DNA of 64,000 nt from Candidatus Bathyarchaeia archaeon (GTDB taxonomy: Archaea > Thermoproteota > Bathyarchaeia > Bathyarchaeales > Bathycorpusculaceae). The stretch's first letter is position 1, and every line of letters starts with the position of its first letter. The position numbers and the translations under genes are program-made. The stretch is taken from positions 160,001-224,000 of the forward strand of contig JBEKKK010000001.1 of the NCBI GenBank assembly GCA_050010755.1, in the 5' to 3' direction. Under the pieces are notes generated by a model. That model was not told the origin of the DNA and did not search any database. It worked only from the letters and a program-made list of their open reading frames with translations. Shown here one piece after another: positions 32,518 through 55,995 of this stretch.

Positions 32518-32550
32518 CCACGCTTACCATCCTTTTTCGGAGCACCACCC

Positions 32551-33247: not shown

Positions 33248-33307
33248 CACACACAGGCAAAGCATGCCTGAAAGAACAAGCCATCACAAAAAAGAAAAAC
33301 CGTTCTA

Positions 33308-34222
33308 ATGCCAAAAAGAACCAAACCTTTTACATGCAGAACAATAGTGATAAGTCAGACATTAGTTCAAACCAAAAGACGGAAAAGTCTCAGCTCTCGG
33401 AGAAACTCCATCTTGAAAATCACGGTGTCATTATCGCCTCCCCCGCGCGAGATGCAAATCGGCGTCATCTTCGCAGTGACGGGAATCTTGTCCCTGCTCG
33501 TAGCTGTCTATAAGCAATCAGAAGTGTTAGCCTTCATAGGCCTCGGCCTGACCCTGTGGGGCGTACTTTTCTTCCTCGTAAGACCCGTAATGTACGTTCG
33601 CGGAAGCCTCCTCAACCCAGCCTCGGAACCGCTCTATTCCACGATAGATAGAATACTCAACGACTCCAAGTATGAAGGCAGAGCCCTCTACGTTCCGCCC
33701 TACCCCAAACGGGCATACCTGCCCGAGCATCTTAAGGGGCTTAAAGAAACCGTCGTTTTCATCCCAGCAGGATCCGACACCGTTCCACCGCCCATAGAAG
33801 AAATGGCAACCGGCAAGTTCATGACCCAAAACCCCAAAGGAATACTCATCACACCCCCAGGCTCGGATCTAATGGATCAACTGGAAAAAACCGCTAGAAT
33901 AGACTTCACCAAGACCAGCCTAGAAGATCTATGCGATATTCTCCCCCAGCAAATACTGGAAAACTTTCAACTCGCAAAAGAAATAGAAATGAAAGCCGAA
34001 AACAATCAAATCCAACTCAAAATTTCCGACTCCATCTACACAGATCTATACCGGGACGAGACGCTCAAAAGCCTCAAACTGCTAGGATGCCCCCTAGTAA
34101 GCGCCGTCGCCTGCGCAATAGCAAAGGCAACAGGTAAAACGGTTTCGCTCCAGAAAATAACCACTTCTCCAGATGCAAAGACCGTTGAAGTTTCCTACAG
34201 CCTAGTTGAGGCTCAGAAATGA
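33308..34222 (+). CDS. Hypothetical membrane protein with two N-terminal TMs
   Basis: Long ORF, GCPLVSAVACAIAK C-terminal motif; start uncertain. Confidence 0.65.
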   Translation: MPKRTKPFTCRTIVISQTLVQTKRRKSLSSRRNSILKITVSLSPPPREMQIGVIFAVTGILSLLVAVYKQSEVLAFIGLGLTLWGVLFFLVRPVMYVRGSLLNPASEPLYSTIDRILNDSKYEGRALYVPPYPKRAYLPEHLKGLKETVVFIPAGSDTVPPPIEEMATGKFMTQNPKGILITPPGSDLMDQLEKTARIDFTKTSLEDLCDILPQQILENFQLAKEIEMKAENNQIQLKISDSIYTDLYRDETLKSLKLLGCPLVSAVACAIAKATGKTVSLQKITTSPDAKTVEVSYSLVEAQK

Positions 34223-34425
34223 ATTTTCCAATGTCATTCTCTGACATTAGCCTGTGGCTGGCAGTCATGGCTATCATGCTTCTAGTAACTTCTGAACTGC
34301 TCACATCCTCAACCGGCCCCTTGAGAAACCTCGCAATAGAGAAAAACCGCCTCAGACTACTCGCACTGGCACTGGGACTAGGCTTCATCATCACAGTGAT
34401 AATGCGCGCCTTCAACTACACATAA
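34219..34425 (+). CDS. Small two-TM membrane protein
   Basis: ATGA overlap with upstream gene, two hydrophobic segments. Confidence 0.65.
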   Translation: MNFPMSFSDISLWLAVMAIMLLVTSELLTSSTGPLRNLAIEKNRLRLLALALGLGFIITVIMRAFNYT

Positions 34426-34494
34426 ACAGCACACAAACTCCCCCGTGCGCTCATTGGGCGAGGGGCGAGAAAAAATGGTTGGCGGCGTGTGTGT

Positions 34495-34938
34495 TTATTG
34501 TGTTCCTGTGATGGTTATGTCGAATGTGACGCTTGCGATGCCGACTGCGCTTGAGGAAACGTTGAGTGTTATAATTGCTGGGACGACTCCGGTGACTGGT
34601 AAGACCGTGTTCTGCTGGTTCCAGGTTACGGTGAAGTTTCCCTGAGCCGCCGATGGGTTCCAGTTGGCCGTTGCCATCGTTAACGTTACGGATACAGTGC
34701 CATTGTTCCTGACGTATACTGTTTGGGTCGGAGTGTCGCCCGGGTTCTGCATTCCCCAGTTTATGCTGGTAACTGGAATCGTGCAACTATTGTCCGAGAA
34801 TACGCCAACTCCAACAGCGTTCACTCCCATCGTATTGTGGAAGGTGCTCACAGAAGTCAACGCCGCGTACGTGGCTATTAGCGTGGCGAAAACCGCTACT
34901 AGTGCTATTACACCTATCGTGGAAGCTTTCATCGCCAT
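34495..34938 (-). CDS. Secreted beta-rich surface protein (paralog of 32684-33247)
   Basis: Signal peptide MAMKASTIGVIALVAV, VGVFSD..C...TSINWG..PG, VYVRNNG; tracked extension to 35217 is low-complexity readthrough. Confidence 0.7.
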   Translation of the reverse strand: MAMKASTIGVIALVAVFATLIATYAALTSVSTFHNTMGVNAVGVGVFSDNSCTIPVTSINWGMQNPGDTPTQTVYVRNNGTVSVTLTMATANWNPSAAQGNFTVTWNQQNTVLPVTGVVPAIITLNVSSSAVGIASVTFDITITGTQ

Positions 34939-34995
34939 CGTTTCATCACTTGCCAAATAGCTTGTATCAAGTCTTAATAAACCATACTGTCCTCC

Positions 34996-35097
34996 TGAAC
35001 AACAAAAATACACAAAACCAAAAACAACACAAACCCACCACAACAAAAAACAAAAACAAACAAAGAACCCAAAAAACCAAACAGCAAAATCCCAACC
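34996..35097. repeat. Low-complexity A/C-only tract
   Basis: About 100 nt almost devoid of G and T (CACAAAACCAAAAACAACACAAACCCACCACAAC...). Confidence 0.7.
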
Positions 35098-35290
35098 CGC
35101 CCAGACGACCATACTGCCGCACGAACCGCGACGGCCGCCAGGCCCAGCGCAAGCCTCAGAACGAGAACAGGAAATGGAAAACACGGTTACCGGAGATTCT
35201 GTGCGAGTAACATGCAAATTTACGCTTACACATTACAAAGCAACATTACAACAGACGTAAAGAAAAAAAAGGGGAGGGGGAGTCGTTCAC
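35098..35290 (+). repeat. Extended repeat unit A: GC-rich 65-bp leader plus polar repeat copy 2 (35209-35280)
   Basis: CGCCCAGACGACC...GGCCCAGCGCAAGC.TCAGAAC leader also at 35768; core TTACAAAGCAACATTACAACAGACGTAAAGAAAAAAAAGGGGAGGG. Confidence 0.85.
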
Positions 35291-35296
35291 AGCGAA

Positions 35297-35370
35297 ACGC
35301 AACATGGACACACACGTGGATCCATTACATCCCAACATTACATCTGATGTAAAGAAAAAAAAAGGGAGGG
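35297..35370 (+). repeat. Dispersed polar repeat, copy 3
   Basis: AACATGGACACACACGTGGATCCATTAC...CAACATTACATCTGATGTAAAGAAAAAAAAAGGGAGGG; first 28 nt identical to copy at 52493. Confidence 0.9.
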
Positions 35371-35413
35371 AGCAGCGCGCGCGAGGAAACGAAAACGAGG
35401 AGGTGAAAACAGG

Positions 35414-35695
35414 TTGAGCAAAGATCAAACAATCGGCGCAGCAATAGCCTTAGTGTGCGCAGTTGTAGGCGTACTCTACACTCTAGGACTCTTCTACTGG
35501 GGATACTGGACAGCCGGCCGCTCATGGGCCCTATCGTTCACACTCGTAGCGCTTCCAATGTTCGTAGCATTCATCGCAATAATGGGCATAGGCGCATGGA
35601 TAGGCTGGACAATGGCCACAACCCCACCCCCAAAACCAATAGAAGAAATAACAAGCGCAGACGAGACAAAACCCGCAGAAAACAAAGAGCCATAA
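35414..35695 (+). CDS. Small conserved two-TM archaeal membrane protein
   Basis: MSKDQTIG..., WIGWTMATTPPPKPIEEI; SD GGAGGTGA upstream. Confidence 0.8.
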   Translation: MSKDQTIGAAIALVCAVVGVLYTLGLFYWGYWTAGRSWALSFTLVALPMFVAFIAIMGIGAWIGWTMATTPPPKPIEEITSADETKPAENKEP

Positions 35696-35767
35696 CCAAA
35701 CCGTGCCGCCCGCTAGAGTCAAAGCCACCCTGGCAACCCGCAACACTCATTCCATTCTCTCTTCAGA

Positions 35768-35950
35768 CGCCCAGACGACCCTTCCGCCGCACAAACCGCG
35801 GCAGTCGCCATCGGCCCAGCGCAAGCTCAGAACACCCGTAAAAACACTGATTCGGAAACACGCACTATCAACATGGAAATTTACGCTGCAACATTACAAA
35901 GCAACATTACAACAGACGTAAAGAAAAAAAGGGGAGGGACCGTTCGCAGT
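35768..35950 (+). repeat. Extended repeat unit B: GC-rich leader plus polar repeat copy 4 (35869-35938)
   Basis: Direct imperfect duplicate of 35098-35290. Confidence 0.85.
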
Positions 35951-36120
35951 TGAAACCTTCCACCATGGCACGACGTCAAACATCACAATGCAACATTATA
36001 ATTAACCTCACAAACAAACGAAAAAAAGCCCGCCGTAAGCCACGGTCAAGCCTGTTTTCAACATCGTCTGTCACAAAACAACATTACAACTAACCTCACA
36101 AACGCGGAGACGGGAGTCAA

Positions 36121-36164
36121 AACGCAACATGGAAAACTTACAAAGCAACATTACATTACAACAT
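36121..36164 (+). repeat. Left half of polar repeat copy 5, interrupted by the integrated element (attL; DR TACAACAT 36157-36164)
   Basis: AACGCAACATGGAAAACTTACAAAGCAACATTACATTACAACAT stops before the palindrome. Confidence 0.85.
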
Positions 36165-36302
36165 AACCGACTCTTTTTGTCGGTTTATGAAGGTGCATTA
36201 AAATCGAAAAGTTAATCAGTTGATTAAAAAAGTCGAAAGTGCATAACAGAAAAACGTTTTAGCGACTCTGATGCTATATTTTAGGGAAAGGTGTGAGACA
36301 TT

Positions 36303-36728
36303 ATGGCAAATTCTGAAGAATACACAAAGATTGAAACTGTAGATTACGATTTTTATTTGAATAATGAACGAACAGTTTTCATTAAAAATTTTAAGGCTCG
36401 ATATGTGCCTATTCCCCTAGGGCTTGTAGGAGCCCTTGCAAGCGAAGCAATTCTTCACGCTGGAAAAAGTAAAGCTAAAGAGAAGAATCAGGAAATGAAG
36501 GATATGACTAAGGATATGACTTTAGATGAAAAATTGCAAAAAATCAAGGGCAGTTTTGCAGTAGCTCATAACGATGTAGAGTGGATTTGCCTTAGTAAAG
36601 GGCAATTGAATTTTAAAGCTAATAAAGTCTGGAAGTTTCTGAAGTTAAATAAGGAACAGTTTAGTCAATTCTCAAGTTTGCTTCCAAATATTCAGCTACT
36701 TAAGGATAAAACGAAAATAACCTATTGA
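36303..36728 (+). CDS. Hypothetical protein (element cargo)
   Basis: 141-aa ORF with SD-like AGGTG upstream. Confidence 0.6.
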   Translation: MANSEEYTKIETVDYDFYLNNERTVFIKNFKARYVPIPLGLVGALASEAILHAGKSKAKEKNQEMKDMTKDMTLDEKLQKIKGSFAVAHNDVEWICLSKGQLNFKANKVWKFLKLNKEQFSQFSSLLPNIQLLKDKTKITY

Positions 36729-36760
36729 CAGTCCAACAGAAGACAAACTAGAGGTTAAAA

Positions 36761-37171
36761 ATGAGCAATCAAATAGTCGGTAACATAGGTCTTTACTATA
36801 TATGCTATGAATTATCGAAACGAGGTTGGAATGTTTTACCAACCTCAAGAAACGCAAAGGGTGTGGACTTGGTTATCTATAGTCAGGATGTCACCCGTAA
36901 GCATACTTTACAAGTTAAGACTCTGAGAAAGAGAAACCCCGTTCCTTTTGGAAATAGACCAAGTTTAATGGCGGATTATTTGGTAATTTGCAGAGTATCG
37001 GGTGAGAAGCCAGAGGTTTTTGTTACAGAAATTAATGATGATATAAAAAATAGAATCGAGAAAAAAACAAAGAATGAAAAAATAAGCTATTGGCTTCAAA
37101 TAAAAAATTATGAAGAGTTTAAAGACAATTGGGGTATAATTGGTAACGGTTCACTAGAGGTTCAAAAATGA
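36761..37171 (+). CDS. PD-(D/E)XK endonuclease, Hjc-like
   Basis: G..G.......LSKRGW, GVDLV (catalytic D), LQVKT (Q-x-K). Confidence 0.7.
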   Translation: MSNQIVGNIGLYYICYELSKRGWNVLPTSRNAKGVDLVIYSQDVTRKHTLQVKTLRKRNPVPFGNRPSLMADYLVICRVSGEKPEVFVTEINDDIKNRIEKKTKNEKISYWLQIKNYEEFKDNWGIIGNGSLEVQK

Positions 37172-37803
37172 GTGAAAAGCTACCACTACCAGAACCACCA
37201 CTACCGCCGCCGCCACCACCCAATGACATGAGTGAAAAGGAAAGACGTAGGCTTGATGACCTATTCAATATTGCACTTGTGATTATTACCGTATTAGGAG
37301 CGGCTGAATTCGCATTCGTTGCCGCTGTTCTTTCTTTCTCCAAAGACATTAGCACGGATACCTATCTTAGCACGATAAGGTATGCCTTCTGGATTTCCAC
37401 GTATCCAATAATTTCACTTGTCATATGTTGGGTTTTGAAAGAATCTATTTCTTTTCTGGGAGTGCCTCAAGATGCTTCAAAAGTGCATATTGCAAACTGC
37501 ATCAAAAACCTAGTCGTGTTCGTTACAGAATTCTGCTGGTATTTTTGGGCGATTATACTCTATTTCTTCTTGAATTATTTTCTAACTTTCGTAACGGGGA
37601 ATACTAGTTTTCTCTTCACAATCTTTCATTGGGTCGTTACGGCAATCCCTTGGCTGTCTTTAGATGTTGCAATTGGATATGCTTACAGAAGAGCACTTGG
37701 AGATTTTTATTCTCCATGCAAATCAGTGGCATATTCTATGGGCGCATTTTGGTGTTCATTTATCACAATGATTTTTTACGCGCTAGCGCTTAGTATCCAT
37801 TAA
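37168..37803 (+). CDS. Multi-pass membrane protein with Pro-rich N-terminus
   Basis: ATGA coupling to nuclease, about 5-6 hydrophobic segments. Confidence 0.65.
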   Translation: MSEKLPLPEPPLPPPPPPNDMSEKERRRLDDLFNIALVIITVLGAAEFAFVAAVLSFSKDISTDTYLSTIRYAFWISTYPIISLVICWVLKESISFLGVPQDASKVHIANCIKNLVVFVTEFCWYFWAIILYFFLNYFLTFVTGNTSFLFTIFHWVVTAIPWLSLDVAIGYAYRRALGDFYSPCKSVAYSMGAFWCSFITMIFYALALSIH

Positions 37804-37870
37804 CTCGGCAACAGATAAAAAAAATACAGAAAGGCTCTAGTCAAGCTGAAAGAGGAAGAGCGGAATAAAG

Positions 37871-38221
37871 TTACCATGTACCTGAACCCGTGTCGTTATG
37901 TATCTTATCGCTAAATTGACAGCACATACGACACAAACCATCAAGAATGCTTTCTAGCTCTTCCTCTTGCTTCTTTTTCTTCTTTTCCGACATTTTATCT
38001 TTAAGGTTGCTTCTTGCCATTCCGTAAGCACAAATCATAAAGTCCAAGATGTGCTCGAAATCTCGAATCATTCTCGGTTTAAACGGTGCAACACCATAAA
38101 CGGGTTTAACGGGTTTAACAACGGGTTTAACGGTTTTCTGATTAGCTCTTCTCTCTCGCATGTAATTCTTAAAGTAGGAATTTCGCTTTTTCTTGTTCTT
38201 GAACGGCACAAATACCACCAA
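37871..38221 (-). CDS. Basic hypothetical protein
   Basis: YFKNYMRERR motif typical of viral small proteins, VKP repeats. Confidence 0.55.
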   Translation of the reverse strand: MVVFVPFKNKKKRNSYFKNYMRERRANQKTVKPVVKPVKPVYGVAPFKPRMIRDFEHILDFMICAYGMARSNLKDKMSEKKKKKQEEELESILDGLCRMCCQFSDKIHNDTGSGTW

Positions 38222-38233
38222 AAAAAGAAGGGT

Positions 38234-38665
38234 TTACTTTCTCCGTCCTTGTTTACTTGTGTGAGGTGTCGGTTTTTCTAAATAAGAAATTTCCGCTCTA
38301 AGATGTTTCGCTTTCTCTTCATTACCGCTTTCCTCAGCTAGTTTTAACTGTCTCTTCTTAGTTTCGATTCTCCGCTCTAGCGGTGTTAAACTGTTGAATC
38401 GTTCTCTCTCTTCTTTCTCCTTTTCCCGTGCGCTTTTGCTGTCTTGTGCTTTCTGTTGTTTCTTTTGCCGAGACTCTAAAGCGGTTAATTCATAGCGTTT
38501 ATGAAGGGTTTCATAGACTTCCTTCGGCAATTTGTCTTTGTAAAACTCGGTCAAAACCCACAAAACCCGTGTTGCACTCAGTTGATTATTGTCGGCACAG
38601 TCTTTTTGAAGCAACATAGCCAACTCTAACGGCAAATAAAGAACTATACCGCGCGGTGTTGACAT
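38234..38665 (-). CDS. Putative ribbon-helix-helix protein with coiled-coil tail
   Basis: IVLYLPLELAMLL strand-helix pattern at N-terminus. Confidence 0.5.
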   Translation of the reverse strand: MSTPRGIVLYLPLELAMLLQKDCADNNQLSATRVLWVLTEFYKDKLPKEVYETLHKRYELTALESRQKKQQKAQDSKSAREKEKEERERFNSLTPLERRIETKKRQLKLAEESGNEEKAKHLRAEISYLEKPTPHTSKQGRRK

Positions 38666-38675
38666 GGGTTAAGCC

Positions 38676-38837
38676 TCATTGAGTGGGGTTTTGTGTAATG
38701 GTTACTACACACTTAGACGAACCGCAATAACAACACCTAAAACGGTAAATCATACCGTTCTTGGTTGCTTTCTTGCCGTTCTTACTCATAAGAGTCTTGC
38801 ACTTGTCGCACCGTGGACGCTCGATATTTTCCGACAT
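38676..38837 (-). CDS. 53-aa zinc-ribbon protein (not in ORF track)
   Basis: Hand translation MSENIERPRCDKCKTLMSKNGKKATKNGMIYRFRCCYCGSSKCVVTITQNPTQ; two CxxC pairs. Confidence 0.7.
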   Translation of the reverse strand: MSENIERPRCDKCKTLMSKNGKKATKNGMIYRFRCCYCGSSKCVVTITQNPTQ

Positions 38838-38843
38838 TTCACA

Positions 38844-39495
38844 TCTACTTAGATAGACTATTACACACCAACTATTAAACTTTGCGGAGAATTACCCATG
38901 CACAAAACACCTTGAGCACAAACCCACCGCTAACCCTAGACTCGAACCTTATCAACACAATTTGTTAAAATCCGAGCGTAGAAAAGAAAGAGACAAATAC
39001 ACACTTTCATCTGGTTAGTGTGTAATAGTCTAGGTAGGTAGACAAGTGGTAGTAGTTAGTAGTAGGGAAAGCCTAGAGGACACCCGACACCCACCCAGAA
39101 CAGCTAAGTTATCACCCCAAAAACCCTCAAACCACTACTGAAAAACTACTTAATAGTGCTGAAAAAGGACGGGTGTGTTCATTTAAACGCGCCTATGTGG
39201 TGGATGTTGGCTTATGAATCTGGGTTGAACTATTCGTTTAATCGTACTAAAGTAATGATGTTTTCCATTCATTTAATCCATAATTGTAATGGTTCTCCAT
39301 GCACTCGAACGACTTTGAACGTGGCGCAACGGTTGAAATAGCCCAGAATCGGATTTAAGTCCCCCACTAGTGCCACATTCTAGCCCGTTTCAATCCGTAG
39401 CGTCCGTCCTTACACTTTTTGATAAGGGTTTGGTGGGTGTGGGGTTAGTCAGTAGCTACTGAAAAACTACTTACTAACTACTGAAAAGTGCTAAC
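38844..39495. promoter_or_regulatory. Repeat-rich non-coding control region of the element (candidate origin or divergent promoters)
   Basis: Inverted repeat TAGACTATTACACAC 38854-38868 / 39018-39032; direct repeat CTACTGAAAAACTACTTA 39135-39152 and 39456-39473. Confidence 0.55.
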
Positions 39496-39589
39496 TCGGG
39501 ACAGGGACGGGTTTAACTGTCACTAACTCTTTTTGTATAACTGTAGAATAACCTTTAAATACCTCAGAGTAATACATGTAATGTAAGTA

Positions 39590-39997
39590 ATGGTGATAAC
39601 CGTGGAAGTAACTACGATTTCAATTGACAGAAAGACGCTCGAAAAACTCAGTGTCATAGCGGTTAAAGCTAGCATGACGAAAACGGAGCTAGTGACCGCA
39701 TACGTTGACGCACTCTTTAAACTCATTGAAGAGGCACGACCACCGAGCCAAAAAATCAGCTTAACAACTTTTGACATTGACCTTTTACACGGCACACTCA
39801 AACAGTCGTTCGCCAATTTGTACGACATAACCGAGCTACCCGACTTTATTCAAAACTTCTATTCGTGCCAAAAATTCATTGAAGACGGAGAAGCTAAAAC
39901 CCGATTCTACACGAAAGAGGAACTACTGAAAGAGGGTTTCAACGGTGCAGACATTGACATTTTGCTAGATGAACAGAAAAGGAGATTTAAGAAATGA
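39590..39997 (+). CDS. CopG-like ribbon-helix-helix DNA-binding protein
   Basis: TTISIDRKTLEKLSVIA..ASMTKTELV pattern; TTTAAATA TATA box upstream. Confidence 0.6.
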   Translation: MVITVEVTTISIDRKTLEKLSVIAVKASMTKTELVTAYVDALFKLIEEARPPSQKISLTTFDIDLLHGTLKQSFANLYDITELPDFIQNFYSCQKFIEDGEAKTRFYTKEELLKEGFNGADIDILLDEQKRRFKK

Positions 39998-40623
39998 GCG
40001 AAGAAAACCAAGATAAGAAAGTAAAGGTTCAGATAGACGTAAACAACAAAGGAACAGAGGAATTAGTTAAGCTACTGAAAGAGAAAGAAGCTAAGGAAAA
40101 TGAAGGGTTCGACTTAGCTGGAAAAATCGCAGAGGCAAACGAAAAGTTTCACACTCAAATGTTTTCACAAGCACAAAACAGACAAATGTTAGCTTCAATG
40201 ATAACGTCTTTCGTTAACGACATAGCTTCACGCACAAACCCGACACCACCGAGCACAGGAACAGCACCGCTAAATGATGCTCAGTACGGAGCTAGACCTC
40301 AAGACCTCTATACTAAACCCTATACTGATTTTCAGAGTTTAGTTAAGGATTTGAGGGAAAAGGCGCGGAGCGGTTCAAAAGAAGCGGAAAGTTATCTTAA
40401 CTCACTTTTTGAGAAGCACCGAGAGCTTAAAATGCAAGACCCACACAGACCCGAGCCTAGTTATAACCCCAATTCACCAGAAGCCTTAGAAGAACTTAAC
40501 CTAGTGAAAAAGGACGGATTTCTAACACCCTCTAAGGTTGAGGACGGAGATTTAGGTCAATTGCAAAAGAAATGGCGTGAGGAAAGAAAAAGACAGAAAG
40601 AAGAGGGAGAAGTGAAGGCATAA
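39994..40623 (+). CDS. Hypothetical protein
   Basis: ATGA-coupled 209-aa ORF. Confidence 0.65.
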   Translation: MSEENQDKKVKVQIDVNNKGTEELVKLLKEKEAKENEGFDLAGKIAEANEKFHTQMFSQAQNRQMLASMITSFVNDIASRTNPTPPSTGTAPLNDAQYGARPQDLYTKPYTDFQSLVKDLREKARSGSKEAESYLNSLFEKHRELKMQDPHRPEPSYNPNSPEALEELNLVKKDGFLTPSKVEDGDLGQLQKKWREERKRQKEEGEVKA

Positions 40624-41162
40624 TGAGCACCAACCAAGACGATATAAAAACTTACGTAAATATGGGTAGGGTTTTCGAAGATGAAAAAGGAGAACTCTAT
40701 TTCATAAAAACAACTGAAAAACGAAAGTTCATAATGCGAAGTTCTGATAACGGAGAACCAATTTTTGAAAAGACACCGTGCGCAACAAAAGAAGAGCACG
40801 TTACACCGAGCGAACTAGGATTCACAAAAAAAGATACACGGGATATTTACGTTTATAAAACCGAAAACTCGGAGCTAGAAGAACAAACCGTTTATTATTC
40901 TATGACTCTCACGTTTGAAATTCCACAAGAAAAGAAATACAAAACCGCTTATCTCCGAAAAGCCAAAAGCGGAAGGGTGTTTCTTGTTTGGTTCGATAGT
41001 GGGTGTTCGAGTGAAGTTTCCGTTAATGATTCAGAGTTTTGTAAACGCTCGAAAGGTAAACGACTAGAACCCGACACTATCATAAACCGTAACGCTCCAA
41101 TTTTCACGCTTTCGGCAAGTGGAGAACTAGAACTTAGACTAGATTCAAGTAAGGTTTGGTAG
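40623..41162 (+). CDS. Hypothetical protein
   Basis: TAATG-coupled 179-aa ORF. Confidence 0.6.
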   Translation: MSTNQDDIKTYVNMGRVFEDEKGELYFIKTTEKRKFIMRSSDNGEPIFEKTPCATKEEHVTPSELGFTKKDTRDIYVYKTENSELEEQTVYYSMTLTFEIPQEKKYKTAYLRKAKSGRVFLVWFDSGCSSEVSVNDSEFCKRSKGKRLEPDTIINRNAPIFTLSASGELELRLDSSKVW

Positions 41163-41166
41163 GTAG

Positions 41167-41367
41167 GTGAAAAAGAAAATGGAAAACTTAGCGGAAGAGC
41201 AAAAGAAACGGATAGAGGAAGAAAAAAAGAAACGTCTTCAAACGATAGAAATTCAAGGACAAACCGAAGCACGAAAAAACGCAACGGATGACGGCAATAA
41301 GAAAGAACAAGATATACATGATGAAGTCGTAGAAGGCGAAGATTATCCGTTCACAGAAGGACGTTAG
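41167..41367 (+). CDS. Small charged hypothetical protein
   Basis: In operon orientation, SD AGGTGA. Confidence 0.5.
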   Translation: MKKKMENLAEEQKKRIEEEKKKRLQTIEIQGQTEARKNATDDGNKKEQDIHDEVVEGEDYPFTEGR

Positions 41368-41474
41368 AAAACATCACATCGTTCGTCCCACAACGAACGC
41401 ACGGTTAAGGGTTTTCTTTTGTGGTTTAGAAGGTTTTCCTTTAACCGTGCGCTCAAAATTATGAGGTTGAAAAT

Positions 41475-41711
41475 ATGAACAAAGAAGAACGAAAAGAATA
41501 TCATAAGCTGAAAATGCGTGAATTACGCAAAACCCCAGAATACAGACTTTATAATAGGCTTTATATGCGTGAATATAGGCGAAAACACCTTAAAAACCGA
41601 AAGCACCTTAAAACTTACTCAATTAAGGTTAATGCGCTCGGAATTGTGAAGGAAGAACAATTCGAAATTCCTACCGAACCCTTGAACGTGCCTAAAGAGG
41701 TTGTTGTTTAA
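41475..41711 (+). CDS. Small basic hypothetical protein
   Basis: YNRLYMREYRRK motif common in viral ORFs; SD GAGGT. Confidence 0.55.
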   Translation: MNKEERKEYHKLKMRELRKTPEYRLYNRLYMREYRRKHLKNRKHLKTYSIKVNALGIVKEEQFEIPTEPLNVPKEVVV

Positions 41712-42244
41712 TGTCGGACATTGACGAATACAACCAACTTAGCGCGGTTGACCAAGCATATATCAGCACTTATGGATGGGATATGTACCGCAAGAAGAAA
41801 GCACTCGAAGAGAACGGCAAGTTTCCAAGACAGCAACAGAGCACACCACAACCGCAAGAGGAAAGCATAGAAGAGACAGAACAAGAGGAAGAACCCGAGA
41901 CAGCAACAGACGAAGAAAAAGAAGAGTGGGAAAAAGAACTTGAAGAATCCGACTTTAAAGAGCGAAAAGAAAAGATTCTTGAAACTATCGAAGCCCAGCT
42001 TAAAGCGGAACAAGACACAGACGAATTAACATTATGGATTAAGTCAAACAAAGACCTTGAAACCCTTGTGAGAACTTTTCTAGGTTGCATAAAGACTCTT
42101 GGTAAATACAAAGACCCACAAAAAGCCACGATAATTATTAAGAAAAAGAACGAACGACTTTTCTTCAACTTTAAGTTGGTTGACGAAAACGGCGAAGATG
42201 TGATGTTCGACCCGAAAACAGGTAATGTGGCGAAGATAAATTGA
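41711..42244 (+). CDS. Acidic hypothetical protein
   Basis: TAATG-coupled, Glu-rich. Confidence 0.6.
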   Translation: MSDIDEYNQLSAVDQAYISTYGWDMYRKKKALEENGKFPRQQQSTPQPQEESIEETEQEEEPETATDEEKEEWEKELEESDFKERKEKILETIEAQLKAEQDTDELTLWIKSNKDLETLVRTFLGCIKTLGKYKDPQKATIIIKKKNERLFFNFKLVDENGEDVMFDPKTGNVAKIN

Positions 42245-42435
42245 AGTGCGCTTTTTGCGGTCAATCTCTCTATGGCTCATTAAGAGTTTATGATAGTAAT
42301 AGTCGTGCGTTTTGCAGTCGTGGCTGTAAAGAAGATTATCAGAGACGTATGGCTCAAATTGACAAGAAAAGACGTGCTCAGAGCATAGCTGAAAGGCAAC
42401 AAAAAAGGCTTATGGAGTGGACAGGAGACGATTAG
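42241..42435 (+). CDS. TRASH/MYM-type zinc-finger protein
   Basis: CAFCG...FCSRGC. Confidence 0.65.
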   Translation: MKCAFCGQSLYGSLRVYDSNSRAFCSRGCKEDYQRRMAQIDKKRRAQSIAERQQKRLMEWTGDD

Positions 42436-42634
42436 AAAAAGGTGGATTGACGTGTCCGCTTATGAGTGTGACCGCAAACGGACAAAGAACCTCAAATTCG
42501 CGTCCTATGTTCGAACCAAGCATAAGGCGAAAGTTGAAAGCGAAATGTTTCAGAAGGTGGCGTTTACTTGAACCCTAACCCGATTAAACCGATTTTACCA
42601 AACCCGAATAAAAAACCGAAAAAGAGGCTCTAAA

Positions 42635-42826
42635 ATGAATGTTGTATGCCTTATCACCCGTGCGAAAATTGACGCAATGTTTCAGAACTACACACCCGAA
42701 AACGTTGACAAAACTAAGGAAGAAATTAATCCTCACTTGTTGCGGTGTGCCGAGTGCCGAGAATATCTTAACGCTCAATTCGAAAAAAAGAGAATGGAGA
42801 ATGAAAAAAATGGCAATGGTTGTTAG
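42635..42826 (+). CDS. Small protein with H-x3-C-x2-C zinc motif
   Basis: HLLRCAEC. Confidence 0.45.
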   Translation: MNVVCLITRAKIDAMFQNYTPENVDKTKEEINPHLLRCAECREYLNAQFEKKRMENEKNGNGC

Positions 42827-43256
42827 CTACGGGAACCCGAGCGAGATAAAAGAGAAGTTCGAGTCGGAAGAACGAGTTAAGGCTCAACTTGCCGAAATTC
42901 GGGACGGGTTATGTGAGGAAATCATAAACGAGCTAGATTCTATAATGCAAAAAGTGTTAGCTAGTGCAATTGAACTTTGTCCTAAAGATACGGGTGCATT
43001 AGCATCGAGCATTAACTTAGAAGGTGGTGCAATTTCACAAGGAAATGATTTTTATGAGGCTAACATCTATGCTGGAAGTGACGATATTATTAATTACAAA
43101 ACGGGAAAAGCTACGTCTGAATATGCTCAATATGTTGAGGACGGACACGGAACTTATGAGGGTGTGCCGTTTCTTGAAGAGGCTATGATGAAATATGAGA
43201 ACGAGCTAGAACTAGCGGTAAACCGCGCCTTAGCTGAATTGTGCACGGGTGATTAG
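42801..43256 (+). CDS. HK97 gp10-like phage head-tail morphogenesis protein
   Basis: CPKDTGALASSI ... EYAQYVEDGH ... PFLEEA match the P.DTG.L..SI / YA.YVE.G / PFL..A signature; tracked start 42639 is probably too long. Confidence 0.75.
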   Translation: MKKMAMVVSYGNPSEIKEKFESEERVKAQLAEIRDGLCEEIINELDSIMQKVLASAIELCPKDTGALASSINLEGGAISQGNDFYEANIYAGSDDIINYKTGKATSEYAQYVEDGHGTYEGVPFLEEAMMKYENELELAVNRALAELCTGD

Positions 43257-43307
43257 ATGATAATCAATTTTTCAAAAAAAGTTCGCCTATGCGGAGCGTG
43301 TTAAAAG

Positions 43308-43685
43308 TTGACGGTTGAACCCTCAGAGGAAATTCGAAAGAAGGAACAAAAGGCAAGATGGAACCACACGGCATATTTGAAGAGGAAAGCGAAACAAGAA
43401 CCCGAAAAACTTAGCGATAATCAAGTGATAGAGCACACAAGCAACAAAGAACACTTCTTAGGAAAAAGCGAAAGCGAAGAGTTTCCAGAGCACCGCGCTT
43501 ATGCGGAAGTTTTCAGCACACCCAGAGACAGACTTTTAGAAGGTTTGAATCCTAGACCAATGATTAAAAGGTCAAGTGACGACCCGTTAGCTTATGGTGA
43601 AAAAGGCACGTTTATCTGTTCTATACATGGGTGTCCCTTAACTAAAAGAGGGTGTCCCGTGTGCAACGGAGAACAAGACGCTTAG
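43308..43685 (+). CDS. Hypothetical protein with C-terminal zinc finger
   Basis: CSIHG...CPVC. Confidence 0.55.
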   Translation: MTVEPSEEIRKKEQKARWNHTAYLKRKAKQEPEKLSDNQVIEHTSNKEHFLGKSESEEFPEHRAYAEVFSTPRDRLLEGLNPRPMIKRSSDDPLAYGEKGTFICSIHGCPLTKRGCPVCNGEQDA

Positions 43686-43840
43686 AAGTCACGGGAAAGC
43701 TGAACCAAGTTGAGAATGAAAATAGCAAAAAGCCTTGCCTCACCGCTATTAGACGAAATCGCCGCTCTAGGTTTTCGCACCTAGACAATAAGCGAAAGTT
43801 TGACTTTCCCGAGACAAATTAATAGAAAAAGGTAGGGTGT

Positions 43841-43990
43841 TTAAGGTACAAATTCGCTTTCTTCTTCTTCCTCATTGATTGTTGTGTCGTTTGGGGTTTC
43901 GGTTTCGTCCGTGGGTTCGTCTTGTTGGTTTTTTGGCACGGTAAGAAAAAGGCGAACGAAGACTTTCTTAAGTTTTTCTTTTGCGGTCAC
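43841..43990 (-). CDS. 49-aa acidic hypothetical protein (not in ORF track)
   Basis: GTGA overlap with upstream ORF; MTAKEKLKKVFVRLFLTVPKNQQDEPTDE... Confidence 0.4.
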   Translation of the reverse strand: MTAKEKLKKVFVRLFLTVPKNQQDEPTDETETPNDTTINEEEEESEFVP

Positions 43991-44292
43991 TCGAACACCT
44001 TCCTTCTTTTGACATCACTTAATATCACTTCTTTGCCTTTAACTAGCCAAGTCACACGGTAAACCCAATTTACTTTAGTATTTATTATTTCCGCATCTGG
44101 AAATTGCTCTCTAATGCTTTTGTAGATTAGCTTTCTCTCTTCTGGGTTTGGATATGTCTTTTCGTCCACATAGGCTGTTATGTCTGTTTTTTTGCCGTAT
44201 TTTTTCTCAATAGCCTTGATTTTGCGAGCAACTTCTAAATTAGTCTCTTCAATCAGCTTTTCCACGTCTTTTTTATAGTCATTCTTCACCAA
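43987..44292 (-). CDS. Hypothetical protein downstream of integrase
   Basis: SD AGGTGA, 101 aa. Confidence 0.6.
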   Translation of the reverse strand: MVKNDYKKDVEKLIEETNLEVARKIKAIEKKYGKKTDITAYVDEKTYPNPEERKLIYKSIREQFPDAEIINTKVNWVYRVTWLVKGKEVILSDVKRRKVFE

Positions 44293-44307
44293 GTTTTCAC
44301 CTTCTTT

Positions 44308-45405
44308 CTAGTCAACCTTCACTTTCTGTTTAATGTTCAATTTCTTCTCTATCAAGTCTCGGAAATCGTTAAGTTCGCCTATGCTCTTGCTCATAGTGTT
44401 TTGGTTCTTCCGCAATACCTCAATTTCGGCATCCTTAGAAGCTATTTCCTTTTCTAATCGTTGAACGGTTGCCTCTAGTGCCTCAATCTTAACGTGGTTC
44501 TTGCCGTTTCCGTTAATGATTATGCTCGGCATAGCCCTTAGATACACTTCTCTTAATTGGTCTTGGCTAACATAAGCACCCTCACTAATCGCCTTTCCGA
44601 CAATTTGTTTCCATTGGCTCTCACTAGCAACCGCGCTAAGACGGTCAATAAGATATTTTCTGAGGTTGTGAAATCTAACCCGTTTTTCTCCGCTTTCAAG
44701 ACGTGCCTTTTTGAAAAGGTTCTGAACACAAGCGGTTAAGTTTTCCTCATCCCAATCTAGCACTCGGTCACTATTTTTCTTATCTGGGTTTCGCTCTAGC
44801 ATTGCCTTAACGACTTGAACAGCGTCACTATCAAGAAACGGGTAAGCTGGAATATGCTCCTTACCCGTTGCTTTTTCGCCTAAGAAAACGGGTGCTTCAC
44901 TGTCTAAGTGAATGCTTCTAAAGTCTCCGAAAGTGTAGGTAACGAAATCACCAGCACGTAAGCCTATGCTTTTGCCGACAAGCAAAACGTAACGCTCAAT
45001 AAAAGAGCCTTGTTCAACCATTCGGGCTAAGTCTTCTTTCGCAAAAAGATAGTCTTGTGTCGTTCTGTTGCTTTCTTGAAGCCTATCGCTTTCTTGCCTT
45101 GTGAAGACTAGAGGCACACGTTTAGAAGTGAAAAAGCCTCTTATCGCCGAAACACCCACGTTAGCATAGTTCTCAGATTTTTTGCACTCGTTGATTATGT
45201 ACGCTTTAAAGTTCATAACTAGCTTTTCGGTTTCAGCGTCCTTATCAGCTTTCCTAAATTCCAAAAGTGCCTTTCCGTTCATATGGGAAAAGTTAATCCA
45301 ATATTTCAGAATCGACCCGTAAGCGTTCTTACTGTTTGGCTTTAGGCTGTTCAAGAATGCCGTAAACTCAGAATCAAGTTTTTCTTCGCATTTTATTGCT
45401 TTCAT
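44308..45405 (-). CDS. Tyrosine recombinase/integrase
   Basis: SIGLRAGD (Arg I), FHNLRKY (HxxR), IVGK...AYV (Tyr), N-terminal SAM-like domain; start MKAIK at 45405. Confidence 0.9.
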   Translation of the reverse strand: MKAIKCEEKLDSEFTAFLNSLKPNSKNAYGSILKYWINFSHMNGKALLEFRKADKDAETEKLVMNFKAYIINECKKSENYANVGVSAIRGFFTSKRVPLVFTRQESDRLQESNRTTQDYLFAKEDLARMVEQGSFIERYVLLVGKSIGLRAGDFVTYTFGDFRSIHLDSEAPVFLGEKATGKEHIPAYPFLDSDAVQVVKAMLERNPDKKNSDRVLDWDEENLTACVQNLFKKARLESGEKRVRFHNLRKYLIDRLSAVASESQWKQIVGKAISEGAYVSQDQLREVYLRAMPSIIINGNGKNHVKIEALEATVQRLEKEIASKDAEIEVLRKNQNTMSKSIGELNDFRDLIEKKLNIKQKVKVD

Positions 45406-45484
45406 TCTCACACTTTCCTTATGAAGTATTACGACACCGAGTCTTTTAAATGTTTGGTCTAAACCGACAATTTTTAGCGGTAAA

Positions 45485-45526
45485 TACAACATTACATCAG
45501 ATGTAAAGAAAAAAAAGGGAGGGGGG
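45485..45526 (+). repeat. Right half of polar repeat copy 5 (attR)
   Basis: TACAACATTACATCAGATGTAAAGAAAAAAAAGGGAGGGGGG, lacking the 5' half found at 36121. Confidence 0.85.
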
Positions 45527-45625
45527 CACCGTTCAACGCTTAAAACCGTGCAACCCAACACGATGTTAAGGACAAACCAAAAACGAGAACAAGCCATCGC
45601 ATGAACACCGCCCAAACACCGGAGA

Positions 45626-45767
45626 TGGTGCGGGGGATGGGGTTTGAACCCATGCAGCCCTACGGCAACAGGTCTCTTAAAACGCAGCCTATTCCGAATG
45701 CAAATCTTTTGTTCTGGGCGGCGTTCTCCTAAGCCTGTCTCCTTTGGCCAAACTCGGACACCCCCGC
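45626..45767 (-). tRNA. tRNA-Leu(UAG) with 54-nt canonical 37/38 intron (45674-45727), CCA encoded
   Basis: GCGGGGG acceptor, ACAGG-CTTAGG^A-CCTGT anticodon arm, long variable arm, GGTTCAAACC; BHB central helix CTTA/TAAG. Confidence 0.95.
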
Positions 45768-45913
45768 CTAATGGGGAAGGTTCACTCTTGAATCAGCATC
45801 TTCTTTTATATTTGTTTAGTCTGTAACGATCCTTCACTTTTAGTCATGCTAAAGGGTTATATTTGATCATTTTGTATGATAAAGTGACCGGTAGTCTCGG
45901 GAAAGGTGAAAAA

Positions 45914-46504
45914 ATGAAAAATGATAAGCAACGCGAGCATCAAGTGCAAAAGACTGTTTCAGAAGTTCAATCCGAGATAGCGCCCCTGAAACACACTGAA
46001 GCAGCAGTTCTCTCGGAGTTGATCGCCAATTCTAGAAGAAGCGACAGAGAATTGGCCAAGGCCGTCGGAGTTTCCCAGCCAACGGTGAGCAGGATGATCA
46101 AAAGGCTGGAAAGTGACGGAATAGTGAACGAATACACGATGATACCCAATTTCAAGAAACTGGGTTACACGCTCTGCGCAATCATTTTCCTAAAACTCAA
46201 AGATCTTCCACCTGGAGGAATCGAAACGGTAAGAGAGGCCGTGAAAGAAAGTTTAAGCCAGAGCCGCTTCGTAATTCTCCTGCTCGAAAGAGGTTTAGGG
46301 CTAGGCCGAGATGCAGTAATGGTATGCCTCTACAAGGACTACACAGCATATGCTGACCACAAGAACGTAATCAGAAAATTCCCCTACATCGACGCCTCAG
46401 AAGTCGATAGTTTCCTAATAGATCTGTGCGATGACGTTCATTATCGGTACCTCACGTTTGCGAACTTGGCCAAAGATCTAATATCCGTCGCCCAAAAAGA
46501 ATGA
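45914..46504 (+). CDS. Lrp/AsnC family transcriptional regulator
   Basis: NSRRSDRELAKAVGVSQPTVSRMIKRLE..GIV..Y. Confidence 0.88.
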   Translation: MKNDKQREHQVQKTVSEVQSEIAPLKHTEAAVLSELIANSRRSDRELAKAVGVSQPTVSRMIKRLESDGIVNEYTMIPNFKKLGYTLCAIIFLKLKDLPPGGIETVREAVKESLSQSRFVILLLERGLGLGRDAVMVCLYKDYTAYADHKNVIRKFPYIDASEVDSFLIDLCDDVHYRYLTFANLAKDLISVAQKE

Positions 46505-46585
46505 ACCATGAAGACAGAACACTGAAAAAGGCGATTGGACAGAAAACTCTAAATTTCATAGAATCCTTTTCAAACGAGAGTCTGC

Positions 46586-46662
46586 GCCTCGGTAGCCTAG
46601 CCTGGTGGGGCTCCGCCTTGGTAAGGCGGGGGTCGCGGGTTCAAATCCCGCCCGAGGCTCCA
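46586..46662 (+). tRNA. tRNA-Thr(GGU), CCA encoded
   Basis: GCCTCGG/CCGAGGC acceptor, CCGCC-TTGGTAA-GGCGG, GGTTCAAATCC. Confidence 0.96.
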
Positions 46663-46925
46663 CACTCTTGAACTAAAAGGAAGAATCAACGTTTTGAGGT
46701 TAATAGTCACTTCAGGATAAGTCAATTCTTTATACAGGCATGGCGGCACATAAAAAGCTGCGTTGCTAACCAAACGTGTGGACTCGCCCAAGTTGAGAGT
46801 ATCAGTAGGGCCACTTCACCGCATCTGGGAATGGATTACTCGCAGGCGAGCGTGTGTGCTCGGGCGCAGTCACAAGCATTTATTAGGACTTTAACAAGCT
46901 TGAAACTTTCGAAGCACAGGAATGC

Positions 46926-47831
46926 TTGCCGCATTTCAAAGCTTGGTGTTTGATTATGTCGCCCGATGAAGGGATTGGAAAGTTTGCGAGTAACCCGTTC
47001 ACGATGAAGGGCAAAGTCCTCTTGAGCAAAGTTGCGACTACGGGAGACGTGAAGACAGACATTCTTAGGGCGGTCGACAGGATTGGCGGTTTCAACAAGA
47101 TCATAGACAAGGGTGACCAAGTTTTGCTTAAGCCCAACTTCAACAGTGCCGATCCTCCGCCCGCTTCGAGCGATCCTGAATTTCTCAAGGCAATTGTGGA
47201 GCTGCTTTTTGAACACGGCGCCGGAAAAGTCATCCTAGGAGAATCTTCCTGGCAAGCTCTTGCCACTCGGAAAGCGCTGGAAAAAACTGGAACACTCTCC
47301 ACACTGAAAGGCACGAATGCGGAAATCGCGTTTTTTGACGAAGAAAAACACGTTAAAGTCAACGTGGGCGGAAAATATCTAAAACAGGTCAGCCTGGCAG
47401 AACGAGCCATGCAAGTTGACAAGATAGTGTATTCGTGCTGCATGAAAACGCATTTCCGCGCCGATTTCTCGCTCAGTCTGAAGCTGGCCTTCGGGTTCAC
47501 AAAAAAGAGCGAAAGAATGGCATTTCACCTCAGACATTTGAGAGAAAAACTCGTCGATCTAAACTTGGTTGTGCATCCAAACCTGATAATCATGGACGGA
47601 AGAAAATGCTTCATAACCGGAGGACCCTTCAGCGGAGAAGTTCGAAACCCAAACCTCATTCTTGCCTCAGGAGACAGAATCGCCATCGACGTCGAATCCA
47701 TCAAAATCATCGAAAGCTTCGAAGGCTCCAAACTCATGGACAGCCCATGGAGCTACACTCAAATCCGCCACGCAATAACCCTAGGTCTAGGAGTAAAAAA
47801 CGAACAGGAATACACAGTACTATCTGAATAG
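46926..47831 (+). CDS. DUF362 domain protein
   Basis: VLLKPNFN, MKTH, DRIAID; likely start near 47004. Confidence 0.85.
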   Translation: MPHFKAWCLIMSPDEGIGKFASNPFTMKGKVLLSKVATTGDVKTDILRAVDRIGGFNKIIDKGDQVLLKPNFNSADPPPASSDPEFLKAIVELLFEHGAGKVILGESSWQALATRKALEKTGTLSTLKGTNAEIAFFDEEKHVKVNVGGKYLKQVSLAERAMQVDKIVYSCCMKTHFRADFSLSLKLAFGFTKKSERMAFHLRHLREKLVDLNLVVHPNLIIMDGRKCFITGGPFSGEVRNPNLILASGDRIAIDVESIKIIESFEGSKLMDSPWSYTQIRHAITLGLGVKNEQEYTVLSE

Positions 47832-47906
47832 CAAACAAGAAAGCCACAAGCGTCCCCTTCAAAAACCTCAAATAACCAATCATGTCTAAAACTGCTTGGT
47901 GCCAAC

Positions 47907-48152
47907 TTGGAAAACGTTCAACGCAAGTTCACTGTTGAAGAGCTGAAACAGTACGATGGAAAAAACGGCAAACCCGCGTACATCGCCTACAAGGGCAAAG
48001 TGTACGACGTCACAGACAATTATCTATGGCAGGACGGAGATCATCAGGGCCAACACGCAGCCGGCAAGGACTTAACAGAGGACTTGGCAAACGCGCCGCA
48101 CGGCGAAGAAAACCTGGAAAGGGTCAAACTCATCGGCATACTCGTTCCGTGA
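47907..48152 (+). CDS. Cytochrome b5-like heme/steroid-binding protein
   Basis: FT.EEL..YDG, GKVYDVT, H.AGKDLT, APHG. Confidence 0.88.
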   Translation: MENVQRKFTVEELKQYDGKNGKPAYIAYKGKVYDVTDNYLWQDGDHQGQHAAGKDLTEDLANAPHGEENLERVKLIGILVP

Positions 48153-55921: not shown

Positions 55922-55995
55922 CAACATTGAAAACTTACATTGCAACATTACATTGCAACATTACATCTGATGTAAAGAAAAAAAAGGGAGGGAGG
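55922..55995 (+). repeat. Dispersed polar repeat, copy 8 (intact model of the split copy 5)
   Basis: CAACATTGAAAACTTACATTGCAACATTACATTGCAACATTACATCTGATGTAAAGAAAAAAAAGGGAGGGAGG. Confidence 0.9.

Follow-up and report, generated by a model that had tools for sequence, protein, structure and literature searches.

The stretch of DNA considered here, which we call the window, comprises 64,000 nt of a Bathyarchaeia genome from peat (positions 160001-224000 of contig C1 of G000, a 2.19-Mb genome in 8 contigs, C1-C8, with an estimated completeness of 93.5%). The named proteins nearest to the ribose-5-phosphate isomerase of this genome, at 76-77% identity, come from metagenome-assembled Bathyarchaeota/Bathyarchaeia genomes. 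The window contains a 9,328-bp element, E1, which encodes a tyrosine recombinase close to its right end, lies a short distance from an intact tRNA-Leu gene and interrupts one copy of a ~75-bp intergenic repeat that recurs throughout the genome. The usual view is that archaeal integrases target tRNA genes in the main, and in a few cases single intergenic or genic sites. We consider it very probable that E1 is an integrated mobile element with its own recombinase, inserted via a short core sequence into this multi-copy host repeat as its attachment site (attB). The analysis follows up an earlier reading made from the sequence alone (the original prediction).

Element E1 and its host repeat

The repeat has a core of about 75 bp, made of two or three 13-bp units (TTACA-N3-CAACA), a palindrome (TTACATC-N-GATGTAA), a run of 7-9 A and GGGAGGGGG, and its strand is strongly A/C-rich. 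The tail pattern (palindrome end, A-run, G-string) occurs in 42 copies on 6 of the 8 contigs of G000 when defined strictly and in 62 when defined more loosely, and BLAST with the intact window copy gives 29 matches in the genome. Within the window, GCAACATTACA is found 7 times against 0.03 expected, and the A-run/G-string tail 7 times against 0.01. More than 30 repeat loci are dispersed over G000, always between genes. The 75-bp core is the best-kept part of composite units of ~185 bp, often in tandem arrays of 2-3, and a second conserved module, GTCACAAAACAACATTACAACTAACCTCACAAAC, stands upstream of some cores. Matches in 40 relatives number 0-6 each, and four of these genomes have any at all (3 in G002, 1 in G003, 6 in G004 and 1 in G021), against the 29 in G000, and congeners carry diverged versions built on a ACATTACA motif.

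Two functional readings of the repeat were rejected. As a small-RNA gene it fails on structure: 17 inter-repeat units have a mean column identity of 57%, RNAalifold found 0 pairs in their alignment, and Rfam gave nothing at its gathering score (the best match, E = 0.73, is at chance level). A role as promoter or terminator finds no strict orientation rule in the genes around the 62 copies, which crude open reading frame (ORF) calls (ORFs of at least 90 aa) place in 24 same/same, 16 opposite/opposite, 14 convergent and 6 divergent contexts (the other 2 copies stand next to contig ends); the one trend is a shortage of divergent contexts.

That E1 splits one copy of this repeat can be read directly from the window. 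Host sequence ending in ...CATTACAT runs into the 8-bp core TACAACAT, after which E1 begins with AACCGACTC; at the other end E1 closes with ...GCGGTAAA, followed by a second copy of the core and then by host sequence from TACATCAGATGTAAAG to GGGAGGGGGG (coordinates in Table 1). The 44 nt of the left half match positions 1-44 of the rejoined repeat at 100% and are colinear with intact copies. When E1 is excised in silico, by removal of 36165-45492 by coordinates, the resulting 78-nt sequence agrees at every position of a 73-nt alignment (100%) with an intact copy on another contig (C2:8413-8485); its identity is 93% over 71 nt with the window copy at 55922-55992 and 88-96% with other copies. 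Because the rejoined site is perfect over 73 nt, the two halves represent one former copy and not a chance resemblance; the original prediction, that removing this segment restores a complete copy colinear with that at 55922, is thus upheld. The GC content, in 500-bp bins, is 0.354-0.438 inside E1, and 0.446-0.522 and 0.460-0.498 in the flanking host DNA (30000-36000 and 45500-49500, respectively).

Metagenome contigs (Logan) from four runs (X1-X4) of four studies were aligned on window positions 35300-46300; such contig data drop rare forms. The runs with sequence of the E1 flanks are peat or wetland samples. In X2 and X4, E1 is a single 9,380-nt contig covering exactly 36135-45514 with zero differences, at depths of 20.2 (X2) and 27.8 (X4), and the flanking contigs have depths of 16.0-27.4 and 22.2-30.3, respectively. 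This pattern is the one expected of an integrated single-copy element bounded by a repeat. X1 contains both flanks at ~95-96% identity and has zero depth in 18 of the 23 bins of the E1 interior, with depths of at most 0.5 in three of the others and of 6.7 and 22.9 in the remaining two; it fits a relative that lacks E1. One joint, which goes back 9626 nt (from 45527 to 35902), was considered as a junction of the circular form (attP) and rejected, as it joins repeat copies instead.

The nearby tRNA-Leu gene, 134 bp beyond the end of E1, is intact, and no tRNA fragment was found in 35000-45525 (best matches 9-11 nt at E >= 0.54), which agrees with the proposal that this gene, although only ~130 bp away, was not the target. 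E1 has neither an att core overlapping a tRNA gene nor a displaced tRNA fragment at its far end, as a tRNA island would. The gene was missed by ARAGORN without introns and by Rfam, and the intron option of ARAGORN alone gives Ser(GCT) and a different intron. Syntenic tRNA-Leu / Lrp / tRNA-Thr loci were found in G002 and G003 via the Lrp-type neighbour gene; on the 3' side of their tRNA-Leu, which is the side of E1, the DNA is unrelated and offers nothing comparable as an orthologous empty site.

Two side observations concern this tRNA gene. One X1 contig has a 54-nt skip (joint 45672 to 45727, depth 93.6) that equals the tRNA-Leu intron and hints that a related organism has an allele without it. 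In G003 (C1), a 92-aa stop-to-stop frame with classical tyrosine-integrase C-terminal motifs (LRH...LGH...Y; L082:913-1191) abuts the orthologous tRNA-Leu (L082:1228-1371) and, from its sequence, resembles the C-terminal part of an SSV-type integrase that has been split. If so, another type of element would target, within the genus, the tRNA that E1 ignores.

The integrase, its sister elements and E1 cargo

The gene at the right end of E1 encodes a protein whose AlphaFold2 model (predicted local distance difference test score, pLDDT, 91.4) has both the catalytic domain and the N-terminal core-binding domain of the tyrosine recombinase superfamily. Foldseek against the PDB gave 39 matches at E <= 1e-3, with XerA at the top (5hxy, E = 1.7e-9); among the matches listed at that threshold, all are tyrosine recombinases (XerA, IntI 2a3v, lambda Int, XerH, Tn1549 Int, Cre and Brujita Int). 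Residues R150, K182, H246, R249 and Y278 are invariant in all 43 aligned family members, and an invariant G270-K271 probably occupies the place where the fifth (H/W) catalytic position is expected. The PHROG integrase match of the E1 protein is weak (E = 0.0063), and 10 of the 43 family members match PF00589 when scanned singly (best 2.3e-7). With E <= 1e-5 as the threshold, 372 of 2,848 candidate proteins belong to the family, and most of these are unnamed or hypothetical; 4 of the best 120 homologues carry a precomputed PF00589 annotation. All 12 genome records with homologous integrases are labelled Bathyarchaeia or Bathyarchaeota, and IMG/VR contained no relative. Judged by the fold model and the catalytic residues, the protein is a real, very divergent tyrosine recombinase with an added C-terminal coiled coil. 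Its ORF is intact, lies wholly inside E1 and ends 80 bp from the right core copy; with the gene whole and the core outside it, the integrase is not of the SSV type, in which the gene is split.

Further insertions in the same genome carry much of the argument. By tblastn, G000 encodes integrase paralogues at C2:135-1091 (71% identity), C2:199486-200436 (72%) and C3:24487-25608 (38%), and the three elements with these paralogues (38-72% identity) split the same CAACAT(TA) motif as E1. Both right junctions on C2 read ...CTGTTAAATGCAACATTA then CATCTGATGTAAAG, cutting the repeat off where it is cut in the window; the element sequence there ends in ...CTGTTAAA + TGCAACATTA, again with CATCTGATGTAAAG next to it, and each copy has its own, different host flank. 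Left junctions were found at C8:11885 (...CATTGCAACATTA then TCAGTCTTAG) and, on the minus strand, at C4:~1757 (...CAATGCAACATTA then CGAACCTTTAG). The sister element on C3, E2, is contiguous (16396-25727) and at 9,332 bp has nearly the length of E1. Its left side reads ...AAAACAACATTA then AAGTCG and its right side ...ATAGTACAACATTA then CAACTAACC; it has ACAACATTA at both ends, and its rejoined flanks form the second repeat module and not the main core. Counting four left junctions (window, C3, C8 and C4) and four right ones (window, C3, C2 start and C2 end), 8 of 8 fall in (A/G)CAACAT(TA), as expected if homologous elements sit at the same place in split repeats.

The insertion position is identical in three elements, which occupy the same (type-A) repeat, and the fourth lies at the same 8-mer in the second module. 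Since both the flanks and the element interiors differ, these are separate insertions; the sister elements have almost no cargo in common. Core length varies with the element (8, 9 or 10 bp). At the variable core position E1 has A, as do 2 other genomic copies (TTACAACATTACATC), and the C2/C8 elements have G, as do 9 genomic copies; core and target variants correspond. The genome has 24 sites that fit the target pattern [AG]CAACATTACATC[AT]GATG, and 3 are occupied. Four insertions at one motif and 24 candidate sites bear out the prediction of a multi-copy intergenic repeat used as attB, with many potential landing sites. Two distant integrase paralogues (23-27% identity) also lie outside the window, at C7:14715-15665 and C1:1349109-1349999.

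The ends of E1 share a palindrome of the form ACCG-N11-CGGT (36166-36184 and 45462-45480). Another palindrome, TTAATCAGTTGATTAA, is shared by E1 and its sister elements ~50-70 bp in from their left ends, and a regulator encoded by the elements may use it as an operator. With its A-run it recurs in G000 (C3:16430, C8:11940 and 11975, C3:111129 on the minus strand, and C1:506552), both in sister elements and at a few other places, and the extra sites may mark further elements.

Little of the cargo is recognisable. No capsid, terminase or replication genes were recognised in the 9.3 kb of E1, Pfam and PHROGs yielded no above-threshold match for nine small ORFs, and the ORFs scanned against these databases matched no transposase family, which leaves the tyrosine recombinase as the sole recombinase found. 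Among 16 E1 proteins, relatives within the fetched loci were found for the integrase (64 loci), the ORF at 39994 (1) and the gp10-like ORF (2), and for none of the others. Relatives of the gp10-like ORF adjoin homologous integrases in L032 and L059, and this ORF may represent a satellite-like or degraded head-tail virus module. To the left of E1, among repeat copies, stand two paralogous-looking ORFs (32684-33247 and 34495-35217 on the minus strand) with an N-terminal membrane anchor and many N-x-T/S sequons, which may be surface proteins.

Table 1. Features of E1 and its surroundings, in window coordinates
Feature	Position	Strand	Basis or remark
Integrated element E1	36165..45492	.	9,328 bp including one core copy; GC drop, metagenome contig extent
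Core direct repeat TACAACAT, 8 bp, left copy	36157..36164	+	Read directly; 8 letters fit either side of the 9,328-nt skip
Core direct repeat TACAACAT, 8 bp, right copy	45485..45492	+	Read directly
Left half of split host repeat (host part of attL)	36121..36164	+	13-bp units ending in the core
Right half of split host repeat	45493..45526	+	Palindrome TTACATC-A-GATGTAA (from 45492), A-run, G-string
Left-end palindrome AACCGAC-N7-GTCGGTT (ACCG-N11-CGGT), candidate integrase arm site	36165..36185	+	Read directly
Right-end arm TAAACCGAC..GCGGTAAA (ACCG-N11-CGGT)	45460..45484	+	Read directly
Palindrome TTAATCAGTTGATTAA with A-run, candidate operator	36212..36232	+	Common to left ends of E1, E2 and E3
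Integrase, divergent tyrosine recombinase, 365 aa, C-terminal coiled coil (residues ~301-363)	44308..45405	-	Fold and catalytic residues
ORF, 136 aa, phage-type protein without assigned function	36761..37171	+	phrog_5018, E = 1.5e-7
ORF, 135 aa, weak transcriptional-repressor match	39590..39997	+	phrog_876, E = 7.7e-4
ORF with HK97 gp10-like / tail-completion (Neck1) domain	42639..43256	+	PF04883, E = 1.3e-5 (above cutoff); phrog_5, E = 9.5e-13
Intact repeat copy, reference	55922..55995	+	
Intact repeat copy	35866..35940	+	180 bp upstream of the split one
Further repeat copies	end at ~32610, 35277, 35369		
Second repeat module GTCACAAAACAACATTACAACTAACCTCACAAAC, intact	36070..36103	+	Target type of E2 (C3)
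Repeat arrays	35205-36164 and 45493-45526; C1:641454-641860; C2:36886-37290; C3:126087-126500		First two in the window
tRNA-Leu(TAG) with 54-nt intron (45673-45726)	45626..45767	-	ARAGORN after removal of 45673-45726

Homologous integrases in other genomes

Turning to other genera, we examined 38 homologous loci from MAGs (metagenome-assembled genomes) and metagenomes for a repeat next to the integrase. Six of them, representing 5 distinct sequences, end in ...AATTTTTAAT followed by CCAACCAACC-like host DNA, and a second integrase of G041 also ends at such DNA. The host DNA here corresponds to the right half of a palindromic sequence, GGATTAAA(A/T)TTTAATCC, often with GGTTGG.../...CCAACC arms. 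The palindrome is itself multi-copy: strand hits against those of a reversed control were 85/0 in G041, 52/4 in G042, 21/0 in G043, 25/0 in G044 and 24/1 in G045, and a 17-mer of it occurs 24 times against 1 in G041. When 18 palindrome sites were fetched, 17 were intact, and in the occupied one the element end replaces the left half. In L034, such a site shows a 4-kb element with its two ends. A palindrome comparable to ACCG..N..CGGT stands beside the core, on the integrase side, in L033, L034, L036 and L041. The targeting of dispersed repeats thus recurs elsewhere in the integrase family, for a subset of its members and with repeats of unrelated sequence.

Other searches around the homologues were less productive. 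ARAGORN, which would overlook tRNA genes with introns, placed no tRNA next to the integrase end in 13 homologous loci; looking for direct repeats in 9 + 4 loci gave little information in most cases; the other end of the G041:C49 element did not turn up in 51 kb; and terminal overlap indicative of a circular form was present in 0 of 13 small metagenome contigs with a homologous integrase.

In the peat Bathyarchaeia G041-G045 (for example L087-L104) there are dozens of copies of a long palindrome resembling bacterial repetitive extragenic palindromic (REP) sequences, of the form GGTTGG..GGATTAAA / TTTAATCC..CCAACC, often followed by C/A-rich DNA. This palindrome appears to represent a separate, so far undescribed family of archaeal repeats.

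Mechanism, alternatives and known systems

The most likely route is conservative site-specific recombination. A circle of E1 would carry the ~8-bp core TACAACAT between imperfect inverted arms, and the recombinase would join this core to the same core in a host repeat. The crossover would fall in the last CAACAT unit, just left of the TTACATC/GATGTAA palindrome, with strand exchange within a 6-8-bp overlap of the ordinary tyrosine-recombinase type, and would leave one core copy at each end of E1. In the host repeat the core has a TTACA unit on either side, and the right-hand unit forms the left arm of the palindrome; on the element side the ACCG..N..CGGT palindrome beside the core is, by its sequence, a plausible additional binding site. 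Since the core motif is present at about two dozen equivalent sites, the host would offer many attB sites and several related elements could co-reside. Strand exchange of this kind, present-day activity and a benefit of the target choice are matters that we infer, and the repeat might serve as a 'safe harbour' for integration.

A number of observations weigh against this interpretation of E1. Regarding the enzyme, the E1 integrase has no Pfam match (PF00589 is absent at E <= 0.01), its match to the NCBIfam archaeal XerA model (E = 6.8e-4, 19.3 bits) lies far below the cutoff of 220, and sequence searches of the PDB by phmmer and with a 43-sequence profile matched only coiled coils and no recombinase. 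Regarding the junctions, neither an attP (circular) junction, among the joints listed, nor an unambiguous empty site was found in the contigs of the four runs. Skip joints of 9,328 nt with 8 ambiguous letters do occur in 4 of 4 runs, with a shorter side of only 22-29 nt; taking joints of 9,328 or 9,331 nt together, the shorter sides are 22-34 nt and all inside the repeat, so that other intact repeat copies explain them equally well. G000 is itself a MAG with an estimated contamination of 4.4%, and 2 of the 4 elements are broken by contig ends. There is a 74-nt overlap of the C8 end with each of the two C2 ends, and left and right ends of these two elements therefore cannot be paired.

The symmetry of the sites and the behaviour of relatives add to these difficulties. 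A dyad-symmetric circular junction with ACCG..CGGT arms had been proposed for E1: the arms are present at both ends, but the dyad is weak, with 16 of 26 positions paired, a value reached by 25 of 300 shuffles. No attP dyad stands out for E2 or for the tentative E4 pairing, and attB has no clear inverted symmetry around the core. (In the sister element E3 the dyad is strong: 18 of 26 positions are paired about a centre of 6 nt within the core, a value that 0 of 300 shuffles reach.) The nearest sampled relatives (48% identity in G021, 43% in G030, and 40% in G001, where the gene is broken) lack the CAACATTACA repeat beside the integrase. The expectation that homologue boundaries would show split repeats holds for the 6 of 38 loci at the other multi-copy palindrome; the remaining 32 of 38 have neither repeat type beside the integrase. 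One locus, L067 (integrase 58% identical), has a unique-looking 12-bp att, present as two direct copies separated by 9.28 kb; a tRNA-Asn lies 330 bp away and does not contain it.

Some of these points would suit other explanations. E1 could be a transposon in the style of Tn916, Tn1549 or CTnDOT with a loose target preference, in which case the 8-10 bp at its flanks would represent coupling or preference sequences and not a shared core. Structures of the Tn1549 integrase are among the fold matches (6emy and 6en2, E ~2e-5), and both the absence of obvious dyad symmetry in attB and the variation of core length among elements would be in keeping with this. Tn916-type coupling sequences, however, are normally unrelated at the two ends, whereas 4 of 4 elements here have the same sequence at both ends and the same motif in all; the identical insertion point within the 75-bp repeat in three elements also speaks against a loose preference. 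We regard this explanation as very unlikely. More improbable still is that no insertion took place and that an old low-GC block came to lie between two partial repeat copies by rearrangement or chance. Such a history would account for the failure to recover an empty site with unique flanks, but the halves rejoin into a perfect 73-nt copy, there are four parallel cases, an integrase lies at the end of the block, the GC step is sharp, and X1 has the flanks without the interior.

A different question is whether the repeat is itself mobile or dependent on a recombinase, for example as a non-autonomous partner, such that the 9-kb elements nest in a mobile element. Its composite units, their tandem arrays, the many dispersed and always intergenic loci, the expansion in G000 relative to the 40 other genomes, and the want of a consistent gene orientation, a conserved RNA structure or an Rfam match are all compatible with this. 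Apart from the 8-10-bp core, however, the element ends are unlike the repeat, neither terminal inverted repeats nor target duplications of repeat units were seen, and the diverged versions in congeners suggest vertical descent. We think mobility of the repeat unlikely; it would alter the nature of the target and not its role as target. Integration of E1 by its own recombinase into a multi-copy repeat is thus the interpretation that we adopt.

On a larger scale, we raise tentatively, and as a possibility that we would not yet favour, that Bathyarchaeia harbour a class-wide cryptic clade of recombinases specialised on REP-like host repeats and retargeting as hosts diverge (here CAACATTACA units, elsewhere the GGATTAAA-TTTAATCC palindrome). 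Were this true, polylysogeny would be allowed, as with four related elements in one 2.2-Mb genome, and the evolution of archaeal intergenic repeats would be tied to integrative elements, whose recombinases might spread or maintain the repeats. For E1 and its sisters, repeat targeting explains how several related elements reside in one small genome and why assemblies break at contig ends. It ties dispersed intergenic repeats of Bathyarchaeia to unannotated integrases, offers, for an uncultured, abundant archaeal class, a concrete and testable attB/attP pair whose core varies naturally between A and G, and provides a route to mobile-element boundaries in Bathyarchaeia and possibly to multi-site integration tools.

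Among archaeal systems, the closest are the pNOB8-type ('type II') and XerA-like integrases. They have in common with E1 the two-domain fold (XerA is the best structural match; 5hxy, 4a8e), an unsplit integrase gene inside the element and short direct repeats at both ends. The E1 integrase differs from them in being too diverged for PF00589, in its long C-terminal coiled coil and in its multi-copy repeat target. In the SSV-type (type I, 'suicidal') integrases attP lies inside the integrase gene, which is split there, whereas that of E1 is whole. Non-tRNA targets described for archaeal tyrosine recombinases are single intergenic regions and protein genes (PMC8371274), and the terms 'repeated sequence' and 'multiple sites' do not occur in that text. 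The available part of a thaumarchaeal survey of 68 elements places 39 in tRNA genes, 15 in intergenic DNA and 14 in protein genes (PMC6563490). PsiM100 and the 15 intergenic thaumarchaeal elements thus share with E1 a non-tRNA intergenic att site for a tyrosine integrase, but the available text presents their sites as single loci, or as one locus with insertions in tandem, and not as dispersed repeats (PMC8371274; PMC6563490). The accessible portion of a paper on Bathyarchaeia viruses mentions integrases and no repeat targets (PMC10848311). Searches of the literature on archaeal integrases gave no dispersed-repeat target, although the supplementary site tables of PMC6563490 and PMC10848311 could hold one, and searches on Bathyarchaeia with 'intergenic repeat' found nothing. 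Within these bounds, the suggestion that repeat targeting is new to archaea agrees with PMC8371274, with the available text of PMC6563490 and with the searches, which gave no archaeal report.

Parallels for the target itself come from bacteria. The Neisseria prophages Nf1 and MDA use a transposase-like recombinase of the Piv/IS110 type and not a tyrosine recombinase. Like E1 they insert into a dispersed intergenic repeat, dRS3, so that their loci vary between genomes, and the available text gives ~700 dRS3 copies per N. meningitidis genome (PMC7058167); they differ from E1 in having a bacterial host, in being filamentous single-stranded DNA phages and in the unrelated sequence of the repeat. 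Insertion sequences such as IS1397, ISKpn1 and ISPpu9 likewise enter multi-copy REP or palindromic units at a fixed place, according to the parts of these reports that were available (PMC1525189, PMC12288879), and the palindrome-centre insertions in G041-G043 look most like these. REP-targeting insertion sequences, however, are 1-2 kb long, bacterial and mobilised by DDE or IS110-type enzymes, in contrast to the cargo-bearing archaeal elements of 4-10 kb with a tyrosine recombinase described here. E1 and its sisters thus have the independent insertions at the same repeat position that mark repeat-targeting elements; the only recombinase found in E1 is a tyrosine recombinase and not of the DDE, IS110 or Piv type. 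The principle is known in bacteria with other enzymes; here, in archaea, it is a tyrosine-integrase element that has a dispersed repeat as attB, and in several copies.

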